A stretch of DNA of 64,000 nucleotides from a virus (IMGVR_UViG_3300029305_003246:71414-135413); one strand, 5' to 3'; numbered from the stretch's first letter, positions 15,603 through 33,386 are shown. Notes: generated by a model not told the origin, from the letters alone. Numbers and translations are program-made.

Positions 15603-16462
15603 ATGGATAAAAAATATATGCTTGAACTTGATTTGGTTGTAGGTTTATTCAATCCTAAAATGCGATTCAACCAAGGCGATAAAGATACTTCGGATTTTTA
15701 TATAAAACTTACTAAAAATGGTGAAGTTATTGAAAATCTAAATAGAGCTATGGTCACTTTAGTAGCAATCAAACCCGACAAATCGGTTGAGGCTCAATTT
15801 ATTGAGGTAAATAATGGCTTAATATATGCCGATTTAAAACGTTGTATGAGAGACCAAGTTGGTATCTATAGAGCTAGAGCGATGATAATCGTTGAAGGTG
15901 AATCTATAATGACGGATATGATAAAATATCAAGTAGATGACGATGGTTATATAGATGACCCAGATGATAATGTTAATGATAGTATTGCTTTAGGTAAACT
16001 AGAAGAACTTCTTAAAAAGATAGAAGCGATAGAAACTTCGTCTAAAGAACGTTTAGAGTTGTTTGATTCTCAATTAGATTTACTTAATACACGCCAAGAC
16101 TTATTCGACGAACGTTTATCTATGCTTAATGATAAAGTAAACAATCTAAAGCCAGGAACAGGCTCAAGTGGAAGTTCTCATACACATTCTAATAAACATG
16201 TATTAGACCAAATTACTCAAGAACTTATAGATGCCATTGGTTCTGCTCAAGTTGATTTAAGTGCTTATCAAACGAAGCGAGATACTAAGTTAGCAACTGA
16301 CGATAAATCGATAGTCGGTGCTATAAATGAAGTTTATAAGAGGTTAGATGATTATATAAATCGCTCTTATGATTCTGAAAGCGAAGAATTAATGATTTCT
16401 GAATTTAGCGAGTTAATATATAATCCAGACGACGAAAGTCTAGAGATAGGAGGTCTTAATTA

Positions 16463-20522: not shown

Positions 20523-20774
20523 GTGGTTGGATTTGAAAATCTAAATACATTCAAACATTTTGTTGAAAAGTTGAAAGATATTTTAGCGACTATCTCTTAT
20601 GTTAACGAGTTAGATGCTAAAAATCTAAAAACAGGAAATTATAATTCTCTAAACACTTCTAATAAAACAGTTATTGGTTCAATAAATGAAGTAAATTCGT
20701 TTTTACAAGTAGACTACAATGATTTAATGCAAGATATTAATGAAATTGGAGCATCATTGCCAGATAATAGTTAG
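20523..20774 (+). CDS. short fibre connector protein
   Basis: LNTSNKTVIGSINE motif; C-terminal VDYxxL..DIN motif shared with ORF 56371. Confidence 0.6.
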   Translation: MVGFENLNTFKHFVEKLKDILATISYVNELDAKNLKTGNYNSLNTSNKTVIGSINEVNSFLQVDYNDLMQDINEIGASLPDNS

Positions 20775-20816: not shown

Positions 20817-22319
20817 ATGGCAAACTTAAATGATGTATTACAAGGTCTAGTCAACTTGAACTCCAAGATGGCAAATAATATAAATAGCATGTTAGATAGT
20901 ATTGGTGAAGGTTTCCTTGATGTTGGGGAAATATCTTTTAATGGCAATACTGTAACATTGTCAAATGCAGTAGTTCTTGTAAATGGTTCAAATAAACAAG
21001 TTCCAAATCTATCTGCAACATTTACGGGCAATCAAATATGCTTTTTAGAGTTTAAAGCCAATAAGAGTTTCGCTTTAAAATTAGTAAATGTTACTGATGC
21101 GAATTTCAATTATAATTCTTCATCATTAACATCTACATCCAAACATTTCGCAGTAGCACGCCGTTATGGTAGTGTTATTGAAGATGTTAGAGTTATTGGA
21201 ATGGTGTCTGATGATAAGACTATAGTAGGAGCTTTAAATGGAGCATTAAAAGCTATCGATTTAGATAATAGTGCAGATTTAGAGCTTAACTTAGATGCAT
21301 TATCTAGAATATCTGCATTAGAAACTAACAAAGTCGATAGAACTTATGTAACTAACTATGTTAGTACAGCAATAAAAGATAAAATAGAAAAGTCTTATGT
21401 TGATGATAATTTTGTATCTAAAACTGATAATAATTTCGTATCTAAAACTGATAATAATTTAGCAACTACTGATAAGACTATAGTAGGTGCGATTAATGAG
21501 GTTTTTCAACGTGGCAATAATGTGAAACAATTGTTAGTAGACGCATTAATTGCCAAAGATGTTACAGCATCTACTGACGAAAGTTTCGAAAGTTTAATAG
21601 GTAAAATTAGTGAAATCCAAGGTGGTTCAGGAGGTACTCCTATAACAAGTTATGCGACGATAACCGTAAATTCATCTGATTTAGTTCTAAATGGTGATTA
21701 CTATTACTACTCAATAGAATCTTTTGATTGGGATAATATAACTCTTATTTTAGCCGATGTTAAAGCAATTGATGACGATATAGGATTTACTCAATATTAT
21801 ACCAATATATTATATCCACCAGAAAGATTTGCAGGGAAATATACATTCTTTGTAGGAAATTTTAATGGTAATGGAGGAACAAGTGTTTATGAGGGTTCAA
21901 GTTGGGATTCAATACCAATAATGAAATCAACAGATAACTTTAGTAATGGGACTCTAACTATTTTTTACAAAGCAGGAACAGTTTCAAATTCTCGTGGTCT
22001 AACTTCACTTAGTCAAGAAACCACTCAATATCGTTCTGTTGATTACAATACTATTGATTTAAATTCTATACCAGGTAAATTTGATTATATTATATTTGAT
22101 TTTTATGCTCATACAGTCGATGCCGACGGATGTAATATGACTGTAATATATGATTGTAACTCCAAGAAATGTTGTTACATGATTCGAGGGTATTATAAGT
22201 ATTGCTATCAATTTGATAATGTACCTTCCAATTTAATTCCTATATTACGTTCAGATTTATCTTCAATAGAGCAGGTTTATTATACAGGTTTCATTGCAAA
22301 TAATGGTACGATTGGATAG
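20817..22319 (+). CDS. tail fibre/RBP 1 (stalk + unknown C-terminal head); contains -1 frameshift cassette
   Basis: KTIVGA(L/I)N repeats; NEVFQRGNNVKQLLVDALIAK motif; aromatic-rich C-terminal domains. Confidence 0.7.
   Translation: MANLNDVLQGLVNLNSKMANNINSMLDSIGEGFLDVGEISFNGNTVTLSNAVVLVNGSNKQVPNLSATFTGNQICFLEFKANKSFALKLVNVTDANFNYNSSSLTSTSKHFAVARRYGSVIEDVRVIGMVSDDKTIVGALNGALKAIDLDNSADLELNLDALSRISALETNKVDRTYVTNYVSTAIKDKIEKSYVDDNFVSKTDNNFVSKTDNNLATTDKTIVGAINEVFQRGNNVKQLLVDALIAKDVTASTDESFESLIGKISEIQGGSGGTPITSYATITVNSSDLVLNGDYYYYSIESFDWDNITLILADVKAIDDDIGFTQYYTNILYPPERFAGKYTFFVGNFNGNGGTSVYEGSSWDSIPIMKSTDNFSNGTLTIFYKAGTVSNSRGLTSLSQETTQYRSVDYNTIDLNSIPGKFDYIIFDFYAHTVDADGCNMTVIYDCNSKKCCYMIRGYYKYCYQFDNVPSNLIPILRSDLSSIEQVYYTGFIANNGTIG
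21500..21578 (+). other. candidate -1 ribosomal frameshift signal, type A pseudoknot
   Basis: G_GTT_TTT 21500-06; spacer CAACGT; S1 GGCAATAATGTG(21513-24)/CGCATT-A-ATTGCC(21542-54); S2 GTTAGTAGA(21533-41)/TCTACTGAC(21570-78); -1 stop TAA 21518-20. Confidence 0.75.
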
Positions 22320-22337
22320 TATTAAATAATATATCAA

Positions 22338-22364
22338 AAGGGAGGAGAAATTTCTCCCTTTATT
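22338..22364 (+). terminator. intrinsic terminator
   Basis: AAGGGAG…CTCCCTT then TATT. Confidence 0.55.
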
Positions 22365-22386
22365 CTTAAAAAGAGGTGATAATTAA

Positions 22387-25300
22387 ATGGCAAAGCCAAA
22401 GTTTATACAAGAAAATGGTGAAACTATTATACCAATTACGCATGAAGATGCCGTACTTGATAATAATGGTCAAAGTATCTCATCTAAATATGTACAAAGA
22501 GAAGATTCATCTTTAATGACTACATCTAAAAATGTAGTTGATGCTATAAATGAATTATCTATGGAATCTGTCACTACTGAGTCTTATACTAACGGTGATG
22601 ATATCCAAATAGAACAAATAGATTATTCTGATGTTATAGATGATGTAACTTCTTTACAAACTGATGTAGGTGATTTAAGTTCTTTACAAACTAAAGATAA
22701 ATCGAATTTAGTCGGTGCATTAAACGAGCTTTTTCAAGATGTCGATAGTGGAAAACAACTCATAGCCGACGCTATCGACGATGAGAATATTACTAAAAAT
22801 TCTACATTTAGTGCTATGAGTGAGGCAATAACAAATATAAAACAGTCAGCAGGCTCAGGTTCCCCTACTGATGGAAGATTGGCTCTTTATTATGAGATGA
22901 TAGATAAGGGATACGTTGAAGCTAATGAAACTATGTCTATTAATGAGTTAGTTAATTTACTTGAAGAATGTGACTTTGACCCTAATGAAGTTAAACAAAT
23001 TTTTAGTGGTGACCAACATACATTCCTTATAAAAAATGACGGAAGTTTATGGGCATGTGGATATAACAGTTATGGTCAGTTAGGGCTAGGTACTACTTCT
23101 ACTAAATACACATTTACTCAAGTTACTGAAAACATAAACAACGATGTTGAACGAGTATTTTGTTTTTCCAGTCATACATTCATTTTAAAAACTGATGGTA
23201 CATTATGGGCTAGTGGTTGGAATTCACATGGTCAATTAGGATTAGGTGATAATACAAATAGGAATACTTTCACTAAAGTTGAAGGTATGGACTCTAATGT
23301 TAAGGAAGTTGTTTGTGGGTCAACTTATACATTCCTTATAAAAAATGACGGAAGTTTATGGGCAACTGGGGGTAACAGTTATGGATATTTAGGATTAGGG
23401 GATACTACTAATAGAAATACATTCACTAAAGTAACTACTAATATAAATAACGACGTGAAACAAGCAACTTTTGGGGGTGGTCATGCATTTATAGTGAAGA
23501 CTGATGGAAGTTTATGGGGTTGTGGTCTTAATAATGTTGGACAATTAGGGTTAAATGATGCTACTAATAGAACTACATTCACTAAAGTAACTACTAATAT
23601 AAATAACGACGTGAAACAAGTAGTTTGTGGAGATAGACATACTGTTATATTAAAAAATGATGGCAGTGTATGGAGTAGTGGTAGAAATGCATATGGAAGT
23701 TTAGGGCTAGGTGATACTTCTAATAGAACTACATTCACTCAAGCAGTAAATAATGTTAAACAAATATCTTGTCATTGTTATACGACAGTAATACAAAGAA
23801 ATGACGGAACTTTATGGGCTTGTGGTTATAATGATTATGGGCAATTTGGTATAAGCGATACTGATTATAAGACTACTTTCATTCAAATTGCTCAGGATAT
23901 AGGTACTAATATTAGAGAGGTAATAGTAGGTTATCGTACCACTTTTATTATTATGAACGATGGTACGATATATGCAGCAGGTTATAATTATTATGGACAA
24001 CTAGGGTTAGATCCAAACACTGAACGATATAAGACATTCACCATTACATTACCACTTGATACTTCTCCAGAGTATCAAGATAAATTAAAGGTATATCAAT
24101 TCTTAAAAAGTGCTATAGGTTTACCAGTTAGAGGTTCAATGTCTATTGAAGAACTGTTGGAAATTCTAATAGATAAAGGAGACCAGCTTGAAGATGTTTT
24201 AGTTGATGTTAAAGATACTTTAATTAATCTAATGCAAGATAATAACCATATTATTACTGATGAAAGTCTTGATAGTCTATTAGATTTATTGAAAAAAAGT
24301 AATATTGATATTGGTGGTATTAAACAAATAGCTTGTGGTAGTTATCATGCAGTTGTATTAAAAAATGACGGAAGTGTATGGACTACAGGTTATAATAATA
24401 GGGGTCAATTAGGAGTAGGTGATACTAGTAATAGGACTACATTCACCAAAGTAACAACTAATATAAACAATGACGTAAAACAAATAGCTTGTGGTAATCA
24501 ACATACATTCATCCTAAAGAATGATGATAGTGTATGGTCTTGTGGTTATAATGTTAGTGGACAATTAGGATTAGGTAATATTCCTAATCAAACTACATTT
24601 GCTCAAGTAACTACAAATATAAATAATGATGTTAAACAAATAGCTTGTGGTAATAATTCTGCAATTATATTAAAAAAGGACGGAAGTATATGGTCTTGTG
24701 GTTATAACAGTTATGGGCAGTTAGGACTAAATGATACTTCTAATAGAGCCTCATTTACCCAAGTAACTACAAACATAAATAATGACGTTAAACAAGTATT
24801 TTGTGGTTATAATCATACATTTATTCTAAAGAATGACGGAAGTTTATGGGCTAGTGGTTATAATAATTATGGTCAACTAGGATTAGGCGATACTACTAAT
24901 AGAACTACATTCACTCAAGTAACTACTAATATAAATAACGATGTTAAACAAGTAGCTAATGGTCAGTTTCATACATTAATATTAAAGAACGATGGTAGTT
25001 TATGGAGTTGTGGTCAAAATGATTATGGACAATTAGGATTAAATGATACTACTACTAATAGAACTACATTTACTCAAGTTATAAATAATGCTAAACAAAT
25101 CGCTTGTGGTGAATATTATACAATTATATTAAAGAATGATGATAGTGTATGGTCTTGTGGTGTGAATGATTATGGTCAATTAGGACTAGGCGATACTACT
25201 CAAAGAACTTCATTCACCAAAGTAACTACAAATATAAGCAATATAAAACAAATAGCTTGTGGTTATTATCATGTATTTATAATAAAGAATGATGGTAGTA

Positions 25301-25392
25301 TATGGGGTTGTGGTTTAAATGACGAAGGTCAATCAGGATTTGGTGATTATAGTAATAGAAAAACATTTACCCAAGTACCAAGGGGATTCTAA
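22387..25392 (+). CDS. RBP 2: stalk + two RCC1/BLIP-II beta-propeller regions; contains -1 frameshift cassette
   Basis: About 14 repeats of KQIACG..HT.ILKNDGSLW.CG.N.YGQLGLGD. Confidence 0.85.
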   Translation: MAKPKFIQENGETIIPITHEDAVLDNNGQSISSKYVQREDSSLMTTSKNVVDAINELSMESVTTESYTNGDDIQIEQIDYSDVIDDVTSLQTDVGDLSSLQTKDKSNLVGALNELFQDVDSGKQLIADAIDDENITKNSTFSAMSEAITNIKQSAGSGSPTDGRLALYYEMIDKGYVEANETMSINELVNLLEECDFDPNEVKQIFSGDQHTFLIKNDGSLWACGYNSYGQLGLGTTSTKYTFTQVTENINNDVERVFCFSSHTFILKTDGTLWASGWNSHGQLGLGDNTNRNTFTKVEGMDSNVKEVVCGSTYTFLIKNDGSLWATGGNSYGYLGLGDTTNRNTFTKVTTNINNDVKQATFGGGHAFIVKTDGSLWGCGLNNVGQLGLNDATNRTTFTKVTTNINNDVKQVVCGDRHTVILKNDGSVWSSGRNAYGSLGLGDTSNRTTFTQAVNNVKQISCHCYTTVIQRNDGTLWACGYNDYGQFGISDTDYKTTFIQIAQDIGTNIREVIVGYRTTFIIMNDGTIYAAGYNYYGQLGLDPNTERYKTFTITLPLDTSPEYQDKLKVYQFLKSAIGLPVRGSMSIEELLEILIDKGDQLEDVLVDVKDTLINLMQDNNHIITDESLDSLLDLLKKSNIDIGGIKQIACGSYHAVVLKNDGSVWTTGYNNRGQLGVGDTSNRTTFTKVTTNINNDVKQIACGNQHTFILKNDDSVWSCGYNVSGQLGLGNIPNQTTFAQVTTNINNDVKQIACGNNSAIILKKDGSIWSCGYNSYGQLGLNDTSNRASFTQVTTNINNDVKQVFCGYNHTFILKNDGSLWASGYNNYGQLGLGDTTNRTTFTQVTTNINNDVKQVANGQFHTLILKNDGSLWSCGQNDYGQLGLNDTTTNRTTFTQVINNAKQIACGEYYTIILKNDDSVWSCGVNDYGQLGLGDTTQRTSFTKVTTNISNIKQIACGYYHVFIIKNDGSIWGCGLNDEGQSGFGDYSNRKTFTQVPRGF
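22728..22821 (+). other. candidate -1 ribosomal frameshift signal, type B pseudoknot
   Basis: G_CTT_TTT 22728-34; spacer CAAGAT; S1 GTCGATAGTG(22741-50)/CGCTATCGAC(22770-79); S2 ACTCATAGC(22758-66)/GCTATGAGT(22813-21); -1 stop TAG 22746-48. Confidence 0.75.
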
Positions 25393-25409
25393 TAAATAAT
25401 CTTATATTC

Positions 25410-25443
25410 AAAGGAGGAGTTCAAAACTTCTCCTTTTAACGTT
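25410..25443 (+). promoter_or_regulatory. terminator hairpin fused with GTTCA-N16-CGTT promoter
   Basis: AAGGAGGAGTT-caa-AACTTCTCCTT+TT; GTTCA 25419-23, CGTT 25440-43. Confidence 0.7.
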
Positions 25444-25473
25444 CTAAATTCTGAAAGGATGTGATTTATTAAT

Positions 25474-27906
25474 ATGGCTAAAATAAAAAAAGTGCAAAAG
25501 AACGGCGAGGATATATATTTAGTTACTCATGAAAATGCAGTACTAGATAGTGATGGAAACACTGTTGGTGAAAAATTATCCGATATATCTAATATAATCG
25601 GTGATACTTCTCAATTACAAACAAATGGAAAATCTATAGTAGAAGCGATGAATGAGGTTTTTCAATGTGGCAATAATGCGAAGAAGGAGTTAGTAGACGC
25701 ATTAGTTGCCAAAGGTGTTTCAGCATCTACTGACAATACTTGGAAAGAGGTTACAAATTCAGTCAAAGATTTACCTTCTAAAATGTTTAGACCTTATGTT
25801 ACAGGTGACCATACTTTGTTCCTTGTTGGTGATGAAGTTTGGTCTTGTGGTGATAACGGTTATGGTCAACTAGGATTAGGGGATACTACTGATAGAACTA
25901 CATTTTGCAAAGTTGATTTTAAAGATGTCTATCAAGTAGCATGTGCATATGCATATAGTGTTATAGTTAGAAAAGATGGTACATTATGGGGATGTGGGCA
26001 TAATACTTATGGCCAGTTAGGTTTACCAAAAGGGTCTGCTAATCCTAATGTATTTACTAGACTTGGAAACATATCTAATATAGATAGAGTTTTTTGTGGA
26101 TATTATCATATGTTTGTTCTTAAAAAAGATAATACTGTATGGGTTACAGGTAGAAATACTGATGGGCAATTAGGTATAGGAACTAAAACTGACCAATTTG
26201 GATTTGTACAAAACACAGATTTAATAGCATCTGATATAAAGAAAATAGAATTCACAGGTTTTGCATCTTTCGTATTAAAAAAAGATGGTACATTATGGGG
26301 ATGTGGTGATAACGCATATTCACTTCTTAATATGCCATCTGATTCGACTCCACATACTACTTTTATTCAAATAGCATCTGATGTTGATGATGTATGGGCA
26401 GGGAGTGACCATTGTTTTCTAAGAAAAACAGATAATACTATATGGAGTTGGGGTAGAAATGATGAAGGACAACTAGGTTTCCCCGAGTATGATACTTCGA
26501 CTTCATCTGCATATACTATGCAGCAACTTCAATCCATTGATTTTTCTAAAATAAAAACTGTATTCCTTTCTAATGATACTTCTTTCCTACTTCAAACTGA
26601 CGGTGTTTTATTAGCTTGTGGTCATAACTATTATGGTAGTTATGGTAGTGGAAACTCTAGTGAAGTTAAAGAATTCACACAAGTTCAATCTGATATTGCA
26701 GAATTATTTGGTGATACATCCTCACAAGGTTTATTTGGATTAAAAACTGATGGAAAATATTATATTTGGGGATATAATGGTTACAGTCAACTTGGAAATG
26801 GGTTAACATCTACTATTTATACACCTGTTGCTCATCCAGATTTATCTTTCGATGCAGGTTATACAGCATTAAAGAATAAATTAAGTATGATGTATGACGT
26901 ATCATCTGCTAGTACTGTAGAGGAACTTTCCGAGTTAATACAAATAGCACCTCCTTTAACTGACCTTTTCGGCAACACTTGTTTTACTAAATATATGCCA
27001 GTTCATGGTGCATCTTATGGCTTTACATTAGGTTCTGATGGATATTATTGTAGTACAAATAAAGCTATAAAGAGCTCTTCATCAGTTGGTCAAGTATTTG
27101 TTTACATTCCACCTTATCCACCTAATACATCAAATGTTATCTTATATTCTGTTTATTTAGATTGTATCTCTAATGGTGAGAATAACTACGACTTCGGTTT
27201 AATAGGTAAATTGAATGAAACTCTTACTTTAAACTCTACAGCTGATTCAAATGTCCTTAAATCTTTCAAAGGATTAGCAAGTACAAATGTTCAGTCTGTC
27301 CTTTTAGCAGAGTCAGTAGAGAGTGCAAATTTATCTGATGCTATAGTAGGGTCTTATTATGTTAAGTATAGAAAAGATGGTTCGAGCGATTCAAATGATG
27401 ACCATTTTAAATTCAAAATTAGAATTGTTGAAGGTATAGTTGGTTGTTGTTTCGATGCAGGTTCTCAAATATTATTAGCTAATGGTACTACTAAAAACAT
27501 TGAAGATATTGTCAAAGGTGATATAGTAATGTCTTTAAATGAAGCTACTAAAGAATTTGAGCCTAAGCCAGTTAAATCTTTAATAGTTAAAGAAAATTCT
27601 GATGACTTAGTATTTATACATTTATCTAATGGTACTAAGATAGGAATGAGAGCATATCATCCATTATTAACAGTTGATGGATGGAAATCACTTAGACCAG
27701 ACTTTGATGATGTTATTAAAGAAGTTGGAAATGTTGAGTTACTTAAAATTGGAGATGTTTTAGTAGGTTACGATGAAAACTTAGAGATTATCAATATCGA
27801 GTCTAGACCTTACGTTGAAAATTATACTACTTATAATCTAGACGTTGAAGATAATGATAACTATGTAGTAGAGGGCATTGTTGCACATAATGCAGCATGT
27901 AAATAA
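25474..27906 (+). CDS. RBP 3: stalk + RCC1 propeller + beta-sandwich + C-terminal Hint (intein-like) domain; contains -1 frameshift cassette
   Basis: RCC1 repeats; CFDAGSQILLANG…IEDIVKGDIVMS…YHPLL…TYNLDVEDNDNYVVEGIVAHN. Confidence 0.85.
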   Translation: MAKIKKVQKNGEDIYLVTHENAVLDSDGNTVGEKLSDISNIIGDTSQLQTNGKSIVEAMNEVFQCGNNAKKELVDALVAKGVSASTDNTWKEVTNSVKDLPSKMFRPYVTGDHTLFLVGDEVWSCGDNGYGQLGLGDTTDRTTFCKVDFKDVYQVACAYAYSVIVRKDGTLWGCGHNTYGQLGLPKGSANPNVFTRLGNISNIDRVFCGYYHMFVLKKDNTVWVTGRNTDGQLGIGTKTDQFGFVQNTDLIASDIKKIEFTGFASFVLKKDGTLWGCGDNAYSLLNMPSDSTPHTTFIQIASDVDDVWAGSDHCFLRKTDNTIWSWGRNDEGQLGFPEYDTSTSSAYTMQQLQSIDFSKIKTVFLSNDTSFLLQTDGVLLACGHNYYGSYGSGNSSEVKEFTQVQSDIAELFGDTSSQGLFGLKTDGKYYIWGYNGYSQLGNGLTSTIYTPVAHPDLSFDAGYTALKNKLSMMYDVSSASTVEELSELIQIAPPLTDLFGNTCFTKYMPVHGASYGFTLGSDGYYCSTNKAIKSSSSVGQVFVYIPPYPPNTSNVILYSVYLDCISNGENNYDFGLIGKLNETLTLNSTADSNVLKSFKGLASTNVQSVLLAESVESANLSDAIVGSYYVKYRKDGSSDSNDDHFKFKIRIVEGIVGCCFDAGSQILLANGTTKNIEDIVKGDIVMSLNEATKEFEPKPVKSLIVKENSDDLVFIHLSNGTKIGMRAYHPLLTVDGWKSLRPDFDDVIKEVGNVELLKIGDVLVGYDENLEIINIESRPYVENYTTYNLDVEDNDNYVVEGIVAHNAACK
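25656..25734 (+). other. candidate -1 ribosomal frameshift signal, type A pseudoknot
   Basis: G_GTT_TTT 25656-62; spacer CAATGT; S1 GGCAATAATGCG(25669-80)/CGCATT-A-GTTGCC(25698-710); S2 GTTAGTAGA(25689-97)/TCTACTGAC(25726-34); -1 stop TAA 25674-76. Confidence 0.75.
27448..27891 (+). other. Hint (intein-like/BIL) autoprocessing domain, about 148 aa
   Basis: Begins Cys-Phe, block-B His (RAYH), ends His-Asn; +1 residue is Ala; no homing endonuclease. Confidence 0.85.
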
Positions 27907-27916
27907 TATATATTCA

Positions 27917-27949
27917 AAGGAGGAGTTCAAACTTCTCCTTTTAAACGTT
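27917..27949 (+). promoter_or_regulatory. terminator hairpin fused with GTTCA-N16-CGTT promoter
   Basis: Near-identical to the 25410 element; GTTCA 27925-29, CGTT 27946-49. Confidence 0.7.
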
Positions 27950-27980
27950 TTAAAATTATGAAAGGATGTGATTTAACGGT

Positions 27981-30764
27981 ATGGCAGAAATAAAAATTCT
28001 GAAAGAAAATGGTAAGGATATTATACCAGTTACTCATGAAAAAGCAGTAGTTGACGATAATGGGGTTTCCTTAAAAAATAAATTAAAAGCATTAGAGGAT
28101 AATAAACTAGAACTAGTGAACGTTGATGGTACTGTTGATGATGTAAATGTTAAAGGCGAAGATGAGAGAATTGGTGAATTAGAAAATCTTCAAACTGAAA
28201 ATAAAGAATCTATTGTCGGTGCATTAAATGAACTTTTTCAAGATGTCGATAGTGGAAAACAACTCATAGCCGACGCTATCGACGACGAAAGCATTACGAA
28301 AGATTCAACATTTGGTGCTATGAGTGAGGCTATAACAAATATAAATTCTGAGTTATCTACTGTTAATGAAGAGTTATCTACTGTTAATGAAGAATTAACT
28401 TCTATTAATAATGAAATAAATAGTTCTATAAATAACTCACGTCAAGCTTTGACTAACTATGATATCAGCTATGATACAAATTCTTCATTTTCCGATTTAA
28501 ACCAATCTTTAATATTAGCAAATCAGCATGAAAATGGGATAAAAACGATAAAAGGTCACCATACAGCTTTTATGGTGAAAAAAGACGGTACAATTTGGGG
28601 TATGGGTTTTAATCAATCCTATCAGTTAGGTATAGGTAGTAACTACAATGCTATTGAGTGGACTAAATTACCTATTGATAATGTTAAAGATGTATTTTAT
28701 ACACTAGATAATACAATAGTATTAAAAAATGATAATACAATATGGGGTTGTGGAAAAAATCAATATGGTGAACTAGGTTTAGGACATAATAGGTATGTTT
28801 ATACTTTCACCAAGTTATATGATAATGTAGAAACTTTAAGTATGGGAGAAACTCATACTGTAATTAAGACTTTAGCAAATTCACTTTATTCCACTGGTCG
28901 AAATAATTCAGGTCAATTATGTCAAGGTGATACTACTGATAGAAATACTTTCACTCATATATCCACTAATGCATCTTTCACAAAACAAATAGCATGTTCT
29001 TCCTCTAATACTTATATACTGAAAGCAAATGGTGATGTTTATTCTGCAGGTGGTAATGCGTATTACCAATTAGCAACAGGTAGTACAGATACTTCATTAG
29101 TTCAAACTACTTTAACGAAAATCAGTTCTGTATCTAAAATCAGTTATATTGATTGTGGTGATAACCATGTTTGTGCATTAGACCATGTGGGCACTTTATA
29201 TACTGCAGGTGATAATACTTATGGCCAATTAGGTAGAACAGGAAATGCTCATACTTTTACAAGTGCACAAACTAAAATTAAAAAGGTTGTATGTGGAGCG
29301 TATCATACCGTTGCTCTTAATAGTAGCAATATTGTATTAACAGTTGGTGCGAATAGCAATGGTCAATTAGGTAATTCAAATACTACAGGTTCTTCTACAT
29401 TTATTAATACAGGGAAAAAAGCATTTGATATTTATGCATTAAAATATTCAACATTCTATTTAGGTGCTGATTGTAAATTATATGCTTGTGGAAAGAATAA
29501 TTATTATCAATTAGGATTTCTTATTTCAGGAGACCAAACTAGTTTTATAGATACTCAAATGTTACTGGATATAAAACCTTCCAATAATGTCTTAAAATCA
29601 AGTATAATATCAGCTTTAACGACGGCATCAATTCCATTTATGAATACTGAGTCTTTAACTAAGTTAGTTCGAAGAACTAAATCTTTCAAGAAGATTTGTG
29701 CTAAATATAACTCAACTGTTTTATTAGATTCATTTGGTACTCTTTGGGTATGTGGATTTAACCTTTATAATCAGTTAGCACTTGACCCATCTTATAAAGG
29801 CAATGAAGTATTTGGATTCCATCAATCAATCTCAGGTGTTAAAGATTTCTCATTCTCAGGTGATTCATTATATTTCCTTAAATATGATAATTCTCTTTGG
29901 GTATGTGGAAGATCAGTTTATGGTCAGTTAGGATTAGGTGATACAACTACTCAATACAGTCCAGTTCGTGCTAATGTTGGTAATATATCTAATATTAAAG
30001 AGGTAGCATGTGGCAAAGGTCATACTTTTATTATAACTGAAACAGGCAAGCTTTATGCATCAGGTAGTAACAGTAAGGGACAACTAGGATTAGGTGATAC
30101 TACTCAAAGAACTACATTCACTTATGTTTCATCTTATGCAAATTATGTCAGCAAAGTTGCTTGTGGGGACGATTTCTCTTTTATTTTACAAGGTGATGGT
30201 CAATTATATGCTTGTGGTAATAATCAGTATGGTCAATTAGGATTAGGTGATACTAATAATAGAAGTAATTTCACTAAAGTTACAAGTATGGGGTCTGATG
30301 TTCAAGATGTTTGTTGTGGTATGAATTATACTTACGTTAAAAAGAAAGATGGAACAATTTGGTGTTGTGGAAGCAACTCAGGTGGTCAGTTATGTCAAGG
30401 CGATACTACTAATAGAAATGTATTTACTAAGGTCAATGTATCATCTATTGATAGAGTTGTTTGTGGGGGATTATTTGTATTCTTTATAGGTACAGATAAG
30501 ACTCTAAAATGTTGTGGAAGTAACTATTTCGGCCAGTTAGGAGTTGGCTCTAGTGGTTCAAGTGCAACCAAAACATCTATAACATCTGTAACTAGTGTAA
30601 CTAATGTAATAGATGTTACAGCAGGTGATTATCATACTATCGTTTTAACTGATGGTGGAATATGTAAGAAATTATATGCTTGTGGAAATTATCAGTATGG
30701 TCAATTAGGGATATCAACATCTTCTGTTATACCGAATTTAACTGAAGTTAATATAATTTTTTAA
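27981..30764 (+). CDS. RBP 4: stalk + two RCC1 propeller regions; contains -1 frameshift cassette
   Basis: Multiple CG.N.YGQLG repeats; shared ENG..IIPVTHE.AV N-terminus. Confidence 0.85.
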   Translation: MAEIKILKENGKDIIPVTHEKAVVDDNGVSLKNKLKALEDNKLELVNVDGTVDDVNVKGEDERIGELENLQTENKESIVGALNELFQDVDSGKQLIADAIDDESITKDSTFGAMSEAITNINSELSTVNEELSTVNEELTSINNEINSSINNSRQALTNYDISYDTNSSFSDLNQSLILANQHENGIKTIKGHHTAFMVKKDGTIWGMGFNQSYQLGIGSNYNAIEWTKLPIDNVKDVFYTLDNTIVLKNDNTIWGCGKNQYGELGLGHNRYVYTFTKLYDNVETLSMGETHTVIKTLANSLYSTGRNNSGQLCQGDTTDRNTFTHISTNASFTKQIACSSSNTYILKANGDVYSAGGNAYYQLATGSTDTSLVQTTLTKISSVSKISYIDCGDNHVCALDHVGTLYTAGDNTYGQLGRTGNAHTFTSAQTKIKKVVCGAYHTVALNSSNIVLTVGANSNGQLGNSNTTGSSTFINTGKKAFDIYALKYSTFYLGADCKLYACGKNNYYQLGFLISGDQTSFIDTQMLLDIKPSNNVLKSSIISALTTASIPFMNTESLTKLVRRTKSFKKICAKYNSTVLLDSFGTLWVCGFNLYNQLALDPSYKGNEVFGFHQSISGVKDFSFSGDSLYFLKYDNSLWVCGRSVYGQLGLGDTTTQYSPVRANVGNISNIKEVACGKGHTFIITETGKLYASGSNSKGQLGLGDTTQRTTFTYVSSYANYVSKVACGDDFSFILQGDGQLYACGNNQYGQLGLGDTNNRSNFTKVTSMGSDVQDVCCGMNYTYVKKKDGTIWCCGSNSGGQLCQGDTTNRNVFTKVNVSSIDRVVCGGLFVFFIGTDKTLKCCGSNYFGQLGVGSSGSSATKTSITSVTSVTNVIDVTAGDYHTIVLTDGGICKKLYACGNYQYGQLGISTSSVIPNLTEVNIIF
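28232..28325 (+). other. candidate -1 ribosomal frameshift signal, type B pseudoknot
   Basis: A_CTT_TTT 28232-38; spacer CAAGAT; S1 GTCGATAGTG(28245-54)/CGCTATCGAC(28274-83); S2 ACTCATAGC(28262-70)/GCTATGAGT(28317-25); -1 stop TAG 28250-52. Confidence 0.75.
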
Positions 30765-31019: not shown

Positions 31020-33386
31020 ATGGTAAGAATTAATGTAGAAGATTGGTTAAACAATAATGAGTTGGCCATAAATATTTGGAAAAGTAAATATCAATATAAT
31101 AATGAATCTTTTAATGAGTGGTTAGATAGAGTTTCAGGTGGAGATGAAGAACTTAAGCAAAGAATGTTACAAAAGAAATTCTTATTTGGAGGAAGAATAT
31201 TATCTAATAGGGGATTAGAAAAGCACGGTAAAAAAGTTACTATGTCAAATTGTTATGTAGTAAAAAACCCAGAGGATAATATAGAAGATATTTATAGATG
31301 TTGTTCTGATATAGCAAGAACATTCTCCATGGGTGGTGGATGTGGTATAGTTTTAGATAAACTTAGACCACGTGGAGCTAATGTGAATAATTCTGCTAGA
31401 ACTACTACGGGAGCAGTATCTTTTATGGAGACATTTTCTAAAGTATCTGAAACTATAGGTCAAAACGGTAGACGTGGAGCCTTGATGATAGCTTTAGATG
31501 TAAACCATCCAGACATAATGGAGTTTATCGATATTAAAACTGATTTAAATAAAATACTAGGAGCTAATATTTCAGTTAAAGTCGATGATGAATTTATGCG
31601 AAAAGTATTAGCAGATGAAACGCACGTATGCGAATTTTTCGTAAAAGAAACTGATGAAGTAATACGAAAAGAACTAAAAGCACGTGAGGTATTCGAACGT
31701 CTAGTATCTAACAATTATGATTATGCCGAACCAGGAATATTATATTGGGATACTTTCAATAAGTATTCTTTATTAAATAACTTTATTAAGGAAGGATTTT
31801 TCGAGTATGGTGGAGTTAATCCTTGTGCCGAAGAGCCATTACCAGAAGGGGGAGCTTGTTTATTAGGCTCTATAAACTTGAGTGAATATGTAATTAGCCC
31901 ATTTACTGATGATGCCTTCTTTGATACTTATGAGTTTGTTAATGATATTCCTATTTATATAAAAGCATTAAATGACGTACTAGATGAAAATGTAGATATA
32001 CATCCTTTAGATTATCAATGTCAAGTTGCGAAAGATTGGAGACAAATAGGTCTTGGTGTTATGGGTATAGCCGATGTATTTATAAAAATGGGTCTTAGAT
32101 ATGGCTCAAAAGAGTCTATAGCCTTACTAGATAGAATAGGCCATGTTTTAGCATATACAGCTCTTCATACTTCATGCCAAATGAATAAAGAGGCCGAAGT
32201 CCCAGCGAAGTTCTGTGAGGATATACCAGATTATTTAGCATATTCATACTTCGTTCAAGAGCATTCAAATTTAGATACTGATAATTATGCTCTATTTGAA
32301 GATATAAGACAACACGGTCTGTATAATTCTGCATTATTAACGGTAGCACCTACAGGTTCTTTATCAACTATGCTAGGTATATCAGGAGGAATTGAACCTA
32401 TATTTGCCAAGTCTTATGAAAGAAGAACTATAAGTTTACACGAAGAGGAAACTACTTACAAAGTTTATACTCCTATAATACAAAAGTTAATGGATAAATT
32501 AGGTATAACTAATGAAGAAGATTTACCAGACTATATAGTAACAGCTCACGACTTAGACCCATATGAAAGGGTTAAATTACAAGCTACTATGCAAAAGCAT
32601 ATAGATGCGAGTATATCTTCAACTATAAACTTGAACGAAAATGCTACTAAAGAAGATGTATTTAATATCTATATTGAAGCTTGGAAAGAAGGTTGCAAAG
32701 GTATAACTATTTTTAGAAATAATTGTAAAAGAACAGCTATACTAACTACTGAGCCTTCTAAGGAAGAGAAGGTCGCAGAAGTGGAAGCAGTTCCTTCAGA
32801 TATTATTCCTAGAGGTTATATCTTACCAACTAATGATAATGTGATAGGCTTAAAGAAAAAACTTTCAGGAGGTTGTGGTTCTTTACACTTACAAGTTTAT
32901 TTCGATGTAGAGGCAGGTAAGATGACTGAAGTATTTATTAATAAAGGTGGTGGAGGTGGATGTAATTCCAACTTAAATGCTTTATCTAGAATGATTTCTT
33001 TAGCACTAAGGGGTGGTATAGATATTCACGATATAGCAGACCAACTTGATTCTACAATAAATTGTCCTTCATTCGCTAGTGCTAGAGCTAAAGGTATTCA
33101 ATTGTCTAAAGGTTCTTCATGTGCTAACTCTGTAGGAAAAGCCTTAGTGGACTTAAATAAAGAATTCCAAAAGATGTTTGCTTTAATGCAAGAAGATGTT
33201 GACGAAGTAGAGGAAGTAGTTCCTCATAATATTGATGCTTATGCCGAATATAAAGCCTTTATTAAAAAGCATGGTGAGATAGAGTTTATGAAAGCATATC
33301 ATCTATGTCCTCAATGTTTTTCTCCTATAGAGGCATCAGGTGGTTGCATGAGTTGTCCTCAGTGCAGTTACTCTAAATGTGAATAA
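31020..33386 (+). CDS. nrdJ: class II (adenosylcobalamin-dependent) ribonucleotide reductase with C-terminal TSCPD-type/Zn-ribbon domain
   Basis: FLFGGRI, SNCY, GRRGALM, ANISV, NPCAE, GGACLLGS, TVAPTG, ISSTIN, KGITIFR; C-terminal CPQC…CPQC; no adjacent beta subunit. Confidence 0.9.
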   Translation: MVRINVEDWLNNNELAINIWKSKYQYNNESFNEWLDRVSGGDEELKQRMLQKKFLFGGRILSNRGLEKHGKKVTMSNCYVVKNPEDNIEDIYRCCSDIARTFSMGGGCGIVLDKLRPRGANVNNSARTTTGAVSFMETFSKVSETIGQNGRRGALMIALDVNHPDIMEFIDIKTDLNKILGANISVKVDDEFMRKVLADETHVCEFFVKETDEVIRKELKAREVFERLVSNNYDYAEPGILYWDTFNKYSLLNNFIKEGFFEYGGVNPCAEEPLPEGGACLLGSINLSEYVISPFTDDAFFDTYEFVNDIPIYIKALNDVLDENVDIHPLDYQCQVAKDWRQIGLGVMGIADVFIKMGLRYGSKESIALLDRIGHVLAYTALHTSCQMNKEAEVPAKFCEDIPDYLAYSYFVQEHSNLDTDNYALFEDIRQHGLYNSALLTVAPTGSLSTMLGISGGIEPIFAKSYERRTISLHEEETTYKVYTPIIQKLMDKLGITNEEDLPDYIVTAHDLDPYERVKLQATMQKHIDASISSTINLNENATKEDVFNIYIEAWKEGCKGITIFRNNCKRTAILTTEPSKEEKVAEVEAVPSDIIPRGYILPTNDNVIGLKKKLSGGCGSLHLQVYFDVEAGKMTEVFINKGGGGGCNSNLNALSRMISLALRGGIDIHDIADQLDSTINCPSFASARAKGIQLSKGSSCANSVGKALVDLNKEFQKMFALMQEDVDEVEEVVPHNIDAYAEYKAFIKKHGEIEFMKAYHLCPQCFSPIEASGGCMSCPQCSYSKCE

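Follow-up and report, generated by a model that had tools for sequence, protein, structure and literature searches.

A cassette in phage tail-fibre genes with the predicted features of a dnaX-like, truncating -1 frameshift signal

We examined a 64,000-nucleotide stretch of viral DNA (the window; IMGVR_UViG_3300029305_003246:71414-135413), the right-hand part of an IMG/VR virus record that is 135,413 bp long and has direct terminal repeats, and describe here a sequence cassette carried by four consecutive tail-fibre genes on its plus strand. Each of these genes probably holds a dnaX-like programmed -1 frameshift signal that would yield two products, the full-length fibre and a short chain without the head. 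The genome contains exactly four such cassettes, one per receptor-binding fibre gene, and the cassette is kept in related fibre genes of Bacillota phages and prophages. Comparison of these relatives supports the core of an earlier reading of the window (the original prediction), a truncating -1 frameshift signal, through the wobble constraint, the covariation of slip site and stems, and the fixed -1 stop.

The four genes share one layout, comprising an in-frame N_NTT_TTT slip site, a 5-nt spacer, a first stem (S1) of 11-13 bp, a second stem (S2) of 9-11 bp that would complete an H-type pseudoknot, and a stop at the fifth codon of the -1 frame. The slip site lies in the encoded motif A(I/L/M)NE(V/L)FQ, whose codons read GAG GTT TTT CAA at sites 1 and 3 (21498 and 25654), GAG CTT TTT CAA at site 2 (22726) and GAA CTT TTT CAA at site 4 (28230). 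This motif belongs to a module of about 55 residues with the consensus L.T..K..IVGAINE[LV]FQ..[NSD][NSD]GK..[IL][AV].A[IL]..KG......[FW]. The 5' arm of S2 is the 3' half of the S1 loop, and its partner lies 14 nt (sites 1 and 3) or 32 nt (sites 2 and 4) past S1.

Site 1 is in fibre gene 1 (20817-22319), for which the open reading frame (ORF) list and translation give a full-length zero-frame product of 500 amino acids with the module at residues 213-268. Its slip heptamer, G_GTT_TTT (Glu-Val-Phe), occupies 21500-21506, with a Shine-Dalgarno (SD)-like GGTG 10 nt upstream at 21486-21489. S1 (21512-21555) pairs 21512-21524 with 21542-21555 in 13 bp with one bulged A, and holds the 5' arm of S2 (21531-21541) in its loop; the 3' arm of S2 (21570-21580) gives 11 bp including G.U, with a third loop (L3) of 14 nt. 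The -1-frame TAA at 21518-21520 closes the tail STWQ* and a predicted short product of 234 amino acids. Site 2 is in fibre gene 2 (22387-25392; 1001 amino acids, with RCC1 propeller repeats found by domain search), where G_CTT_TTT at 22728-22734 follows an SD-like GGTG at 22714-22717. Here S1 (22740-22780; arms 22740-22750 and 22770-22780) has 11 bp, the S2 arms at 22758-22766, in the S1 loop, and 22813-22821 form 9 bp with an L3 of 32 nt, and TAG at 22746-22748 ends the tail SRCR* and a short product of 120 amino acids.

Site 3, in fibre gene 3 (25474-27906; 810 amino acids), has G_GTT_TTT at 25656-25662 and S1 at 25668-25711 (arms 25668-25680 and 25698-25711; 13 bp, one bulge). S2 pairs 25689-25697 with 25726-25734 over 9 bp with an L3 of 14 nt, and TAA at 25674-25676 ends the tail SMWQ* and a short product of 67 amino acids. 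Site 4, in fibre gene 4 (27981-30764; 927 amino acids, RCC1 repeats), has A_CTT_TTT at 28232-28238 behind an SD-like GGTG at 28218-28221, S1 at 28244-28284 (arms 28244-28254 and 28274-28284; 11 bp), S2 of 9 bp between 28262-28270 and 28317-28325 with an L3 of 32 nt, and TAG at 28250-28252 closing the tail SRCR* and a short product of 90 amino acids. The predicted short and full products are thus 234/500, 120/1001, 67/810 and 90/927 amino acids, and translation bears out both these sizes and the four tails as originally given; the four heptamers likewise all lie in the zero frame of their ORFs.

Some details of the geometry needed revision. The spacer had been put at exactly 6 nt, which is right if counted to the first G-C pair, but only 5 nt separate the slip site from the first possible pair (U-A or U.G). 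Both stems are present as claimed, but S1, given as 10-12 bp, is 13 bp long with a bulge in sites 1 and 3 and 11 bp long in the other two, and S2, given as 9 bp, has 9-11 bp. There are indeed two pseudoknot sequences, but their geometry is not identical, since L3 measures 14 nt in the one type but 32 nt in the other, and the two types differ by one codon in the position of the 3' arm of S1.

The four sites fall into two paralogue pairs (1 with 3, 2 with 4) and so amount to only two independent sequences. An S1 of at least 11 bp with an S2 of at least 9 bp at the fixed offset occurs at 0.15% of window positions, and the four window sites taken alone are suggestive, not decisive. The statement that paralogous AINE repeats elsewhere in the fibres lack the U run and the structure also holds, as the cassette-free motifs at 16320, 20679 and 22543 have no run and not both stems. 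A run of five T in another codon register (TCG TTT TTA, 20691-20699) follows a cassette-free SINEV motif in a short ORF (20523-20774, 83 amino acids); it has no S1 stem, the best being 6 bp.

Run against 1.84 billion proteins, a profile of the four 56-residue segments retrieved 2827 cluster representatives at E<=0.001, which indicates that the fibre module is widespread. For comparison at the nucleotide level we assembled two sets of homologous sites. Set (a) came from viral, genome and metagenome contigs scanned with a fully degenerate DNA pattern encoding G-A-I-N-E-x-F-Q, together with a profile-guided scan (18 loci only, with alignment A1); thinned to below 85% nucleotide identity, it provided 59 copies for codon counts and 53 sites for stem tests. 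Set (b) was collected with a profile of only the module half downstream of the slip site (alignment A4), and is therefore blind to the slip site itself. Its source was a sample of 401 genomes from the family of a Lachnospiraceae metagenome-assembled genome and one of 401 from the order of a Paenibacillus genome; the post-slip half is present in 19 of the former and 111 of the latter, where it presumably sits in prophage fibres. Together the sets hold 113 distinct sites, 59 of them found only through the downstream protein half.

Codon choice at the slip site is tightly constrained. Among the 59 thinned copies, Leu before Phe is CTT in 23/23 cases and Val before Phe is GTT in 30/30, against 15% and 33% elsewhere in the same sequences, and Phe itself is TTT in 55/55 against 81%; the adjoining Asn and Gln codons vary freely. 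All 59 full-length matches in set (b) carry a slip motif, namely NNT_TTT (44), NNA_AAG (9) or NNA_AAA (6), with GTT, CTT, TGT, TCT or GCT before TTT, TTA or GTA before AAG, and ACA, CTA or TTA followed by AAA AAA in the last class. S1 reaches at least 9 bp in 55 of these matches, and the -1 stop falls at codon 5 in 58. Seven diverged partial matches in set (b) have no slip motif, and S1 of at least 9 bp occurs in 1/7. Pooled, the 113 sites comprise 94 NNT_TTT, 10 NNA_AAG and 6 NNA_AAA, so that 110 have a slippery sequence allowing the A-site tRNA to re-pair in the -1 frame; of the three sites without a motif, two have lost S1 and the third was misaligned, its true site being GTA_AAG. Where Lys replaces Phe, the codon before it ends in A instead of T and a single Lys is written AAG, with GCA_AAG found beside GTA_AAG and TTA_AAG. 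U_UUU, A_AAG and A_AAA_AAA are classical bacterial -1 motifs. Wherever the encoded amino acid permits it, G directly precedes GTT_TTT (44/44 cases; GAG 37, CAG 3, TCG 3, ACG 1), which would let the slipped P-site tRNA retain its first-position pair; before CTT_TTT, which offers no such gain, usage is mixed (GAG 21, GAA 14).

Related peptides without the module, from the same loci, serve as controls and behave differently. There, NELFQ uses TTA TTT or TTG TTC, AINEVKQ and AINELKQ have GTC, GTT or CTG before AAG, and the cassette-free L.T..K..IVGAINE motifs have GAA and GAG at 33 to 12. In two copies Tyr replaces Phe (ATC TAT and ATA TAT), and S1 is lost or degraded there. At the protein level, three variants (P0069, P0083 and P0144) read V-K, L-V and L-Y at the slip position. 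One homologous locus (L354; G004:C79:954-4055, at about 2400-2600) has a 726-amino-acid ORF with two modules; the upstream one is an intact CTT_TTT cassette, and the downstream one, with GAA AAT, a bulged and weaker S1 and the -1 stop still at the fifth codon, looks like a decaying second copy.

The downstream stems are conserved as pairings rather than as sequences. In most of the 53 sites, as in every window site, 5 nt separate the start of S1 from the slip site, a distance within the spacer of about 5-9 nt that separates a programmed -1 shift site from its downstream stimulator. Its 5' arm takes 30 different sequences among the 53 sites (arm pairs include TGGCAATAATG/CATTAATTGCCA, TGTCGATAGTG/CGCTATCGACG, TGCCAGTAATGGT/GCTATTACTGGCA and TGGCGTTGA/TTAACGCCA), and the S2 arms take 22. 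In a gapless alignment of 37 sequences, 82% of S1 cells are paired, against 26-56% with the partner slid to other registers; pair 20-59 appears as GC13/CG12/UA10 and pair 23-56 as GC23/AU8/UA2. The S1 covariation score was 0.30, which 0/500 shuffles reached, against 0.15. In 25 sequences sharing one register, 8/9 S2 pairs change on both sides, and for S1 and S2 jointly 16/20 pairs do so, with a score of 0.52 against 0.21; this set was picked for pairing in the S2 register, which inflates its percentage paired. Synonymous recoding of the same proteins provided an unselected test on the 53 sites. Of these, 35 have an S1 of at least 10 bp, whereas the recoded sets averaged 1.7 such sites and never exceeded 5; an S2 of at least 9 bp was observed in 27/53 against 0.64, and both stems in 23 against 0.23. 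Loop lengths (L1 6-15 nt, L2 0-7 nt, L3 8-32 nt) are compatible with an H-type knot, so S2 can coexist with S1 as a predicted pseudoknot. Compensatory swaps in S1 exchange G..A, V..D and A..G through GGC/GCC, GTC/GAC and GCC/GGC; these change the amino acids on both sides, which argues that the RNA has shaped the protein.

The -1 frame closes exactly at the fifth codon in 52/53 sites against 22/53 in recoded controls (and 58/59 in set (b)), a signal that is not fully independent of stem conservation, given that the stop lies inside the 5' arm of S1. The residues of the -1 tail are restricted to S-x-[CW]-[QR], again overlapping the stem, and the second residue varies freely. Shifting by +1 or -2 was considered and set aside, as that frame closes at variable distances of 6 to 59 codons. 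Upstream, GGAG, GGTG or GGGG, within Gly-Ala codons, stands exactly 10 nt before the slip site in 46/53 sites, and GGC is depleted as the Gly codon, with 2/48 in cassettes and 13/43 in the motifs that lack one. The Gly-Ala behind this SD-like element is also conserved as protein, and the match to the dnaX arrangement is only suggestive. An internal start downstream of GAGG was rejected because no start codon lies at a useful distance. An intrinsic terminator was rejected as well; the hairpin comes after the U run, not before it, and the other strand has an A run.

In the mechanism that we propose, the P site would hold tRNA-Val or tRNA-Leu on GUU or CUU, and the A site tRNA-Phe on UUU, as the ribosome entrance meets the putative H-type pseudoknot starting 5 nt downstream, and in most homologues the SD-like GGNG 10 nt upstream may add pull. 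A fraction of ribosomes would then slip back one base on U_UUU, or on A_AAG or A_AAA with tRNA-Lys in the variant genes. Shifted ribosomes would read four further codons and end at the -1 stop in the S1 5' arm, releasing a chain of 234, 120, 67 or 90 amino acids that would keep the N-terminal anchor and trimer contacts and lack the head. The slippage, its rate and the role of the short chain are the steps that we infer here.

Several points weigh against this frameshift reading. All evidence for the predicted shift is comparative, and the homologues, although thinned below 85% identity, are not phylogenetically independent. The -1 stop and several of the constrained wobble positions fall inside the 5' arm of S1 and so do not count separately from the conservation of that stem. 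G/C-UU_UUU is non-canonical relative to the X_XXY_YYZ heptamer, and since re-pairing in the P site would be poor, especially for CUU, the shift might be inefficient. When only nested structures are folded, the four window sites outdo shuffles by no more than a modest margin (z -1.0 to -2.5). Site 3 has no SD-like element, but GAAG (Glu) at -14 to -11. The role of the head-less chain is a guess only.

The alternative closest to programmed frameshifting accepts the shift as real and takes the short protein as a by-product. The cassette would then act as a translational valve at which a constant proportion of ribosomes ends early, lowering long-fibre output relative to other late proteins or clearing ribosomes for N-terminal folding or trimerisation. 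The RNA evidence fits this as well as it fits a functional short chain; the -1 tail is only four residues long with a freely varying second position, and, because the cassette lies from 27 to about 760 amino acids from the N-terminus, the short products would have no common size. Yet a weak ribosome-binding site would do the same job far more cheaply, the tail is restricted (though in overlap with the stem), and the predicted retention of trimer contacts makes an inert short chain improbable. We regard a pure valve as unlikely.

A second explanation, which we judge more doubtful still, treats the pseudoknot as a ribosome pause or roadblock that times folding or trimerisation at the junction of anchor and head, or that controls mRNA processing, with the run incidental and no productive shift. 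Covarying stems at a domain junction suit this explanation. It leaves unexplained why T always ends the codon before Phe and A the codon before Lys, why Lys is AAG in the single-Lys variants, why G precedes GUU in 44/44, and why the -1 frame closes at the fifth codon in nearly all sites.

That the conservation acts at the DNA level appears very unlikely. The module could be a recombination linker or hairpin site for head swapping, its likeness within the genome could reflect recent gene conversion between paralogues, or the run could promote transcriptional slippage. Sites 2 and 4 are identical over 54 nt with differing flanks, and the module is located where fibre genes are mosaic. However, the many S1 arm types differ yet stay complementary, which points to a folded strand rather than to homology exchange or a protein-binding site, and the constraint tracks the reading frame and the tRNAs. 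Transcriptional slippage typically needs a homopolymer of 7 or more; the A_AAG variants have only three A, and five T are also short for polymerase slippage. The frame- and tRNA-specific pattern is one for which neither a pause element nor recombination homology nor polymerase slippage can account. Chance combined with paralogy in one genome can be dismissed as already refuted: the paralogy of the window sites and the frequency of out-of-frame stops in AT-rich DNA (41/53 recoded controls have a -1 stop within five codons) would favour it, but 113 independent-looking sites in other phages and prophages share the layout, the stem counts exceed every recoded set and the pairing exceeds every slid register.

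Within the frameshift reading, our best guess for the head-less chain is that it joins full-length chains in assembly at the baseplate, or competes with them there, and thereby governs how many heads the phage displays. A predicted three-chain complex, in which two chains were ORF4(1-130) and one was ORF4(1-86), scored 0.76, against 0.00 for the best of 3 controls, on a benchmark whose mark was reached by 51/78 solved complexes and 2/108 mismatched pairs. The runs agreed in at least 83% of contacts, which fall at residues 1-39 and 60-86, and the partner's predicted local distance difference test (pLDDT) value was at least 74. A pass is expected here, the folded chains being copies of one sequence, and it says no more than that truncation leaves the predicted trimer interface in place; the model supports, but does not show, binding of the short chain to ORF4 chains. 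More tentatively, the dual-coding module may be spreading as a unit among Bacillota phage fibre genes, and its short product may be a part that the virion cannot do without, entering mixed trimers with the long chain and thereby setting the number of receptor-binding heads per fibre or baseplate; in that case four fibres would be tuned at once in this phage.

The placement of the cassette at the junction of stalk and head was correctly foreseen, as it lies 10-70 residues upstream of the C-terminal head in all four genes. The further idea that two short chains and one long chain resolve a symmetry mismatch with the RCC1 propeller is not supported. Proteins with the module range from 88 to 1930 amino acids and continue into many unrelated C-terminal parts, so the rationale cannot be RCC1-specific and is unlikely to be general.

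The Escherichia coli dnaX frameshift, which produces the tau and gamma subunits of DNA polymerase III, is the textbook truncating case. As predicted for the cassette, ribosomes slip by -1 on lysine codons or a homopolymer, 5-6 nt before an RNA structure, and soon meet a -1 stop, so that one gene supplies a full-length and a truncated protein that begin alike. An SD-like element stands about 10 nt ahead of the dnaX slip site, and the GGNG of most cassettes is its tentative counterpart. The variant cassettes with A_AAG or A_AAA_AAA bring the likeness closer. Most cassettes, in contrast, use U_UUU with a non-canonical P-site codon and a predicted H-type pseudoknot in place of the plain hairpin of dnaX, add a four-residue -1 tail, sit in a phage fibre gene and are known from sequence alone. 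Truncation had been presented as a departure from the familiar phage frameshifts. The contrast with the tail chaperone shift, which extends its product, stands, but truncation as such has a precedent in dnaX.

Bacillus subtilis cdd shifts by -1 at CGA_AAG under stimulation by an upstream SD-like sequence. It resembles the GTA_AAG, TTA_AAG and GCA_AAG variants in its Bacillota host, its single-tRNA-type slippage on A_AAG and, tentatively, its SD-like stimulator, but is a low-level event at a gene end with no downstream pseudoknot, not a conserved module. The lambda G/GT-type tail assembly chaperone is likewise a conserved programmed -1 frameshift among phage tail morphogenesis genes; unlike the cassette, it extends into a second ORF, is found between the genes for tail tube and tape measure, and in most cases has no conserved pseudoknot. 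We rejected an assignment of the fibre sites to this type, as their -1 frame closes after four codons and the genes encode fibre or receptor-binding proteins with RCC1 heads. The pseudoknots of the infectious bronchitis virus (IBV)/coronavirus type and of the IS3 family share the H-type fold predicted here, the long S1 (11-13 bp), the 5-6-nt spacer and the long loop crossing S1 (L3 8-32 nt), but fuse two ORFs and are unrelated in sequence. Arterivirus nsp2N and cardiovirus 2B* use G_GUU_UUU, identical to sites 1 and 3, and there too the shift truncates or short-tails the product; they differ in having eukaryotic ribosomes and a protein-bound stimulator rather than an RNA pseudoknot.

A literature search found no paper describing a frameshift in these fibre genes. 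If the reading is right, the cassettes form a large, previously unnoticed class of recoding sites, and many annotated phage receptor-binding proteins would be products of two-product genes, with consequences for fibre and baseplate models, virion proteomics and fibre expression or swapping. The cassette would also offer a clear example from nature of protein sequence being dictated by RNA structure. Because two cultured Clostridioides difficile phages carry it, the reading is directly testable and these phages are usable test systems. In CD2301, the cassette lies in a 188-amino-acid protein (QVW56670.1; L419 1429-1995) and reads GAG GCT TTT CAA GA, then AGCCGATAG...CTATCGGCT, with the -1 tail SRSR*. 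In pCD1602_4 (L420 226-375), CTT TTT is accompanied by TGTCAGTAATGG...CTATTACTGACA. This phage and two IMG/VR phages of similar size have one cassette each. A number of Gordonia phage proteins (e.g. OR159671.1 1233-1343) share the first half of the module only (L.T..K..IVGAINE-like), without the frameshift half; most are annotated as hypothetical and a few as 'head fiber protein'.

Other searches returned little. Megablast of the 10-kb fibre block against cultured phages gave no match, and tblastn with the site-1 module gave none at E<=1e-3; a search for relatives with single N-terminal fibre proteins found none, and an Rfam scan of the window gave no family at E<=1. The sole match among solved structures, a weak one, was the 'Tail fiber protein' chain 31he.

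The tail-fibre block spans 15.6-30.8 kb of the window and runs from a BppU-like minor tail protein through a collagen-like fibre and other fibre-like proteins to the four consecutive fibre genes. RCC1 propeller repeats mark the C-terminal end of ORFs 2-4, and in ORF3 they are joined by a C-terminal Hint/intein-splicing-like domain at residues 657-806 (PF14890, E 2.4e-10, plus PT-HINT and Hint), which might be an autoproteolytic C-terminal module of the fibre. Directly 3' of the fibre block, at 31020-33386, lies a ribonucleotide reductase gene with a barrel domain and a TSCPD domain.

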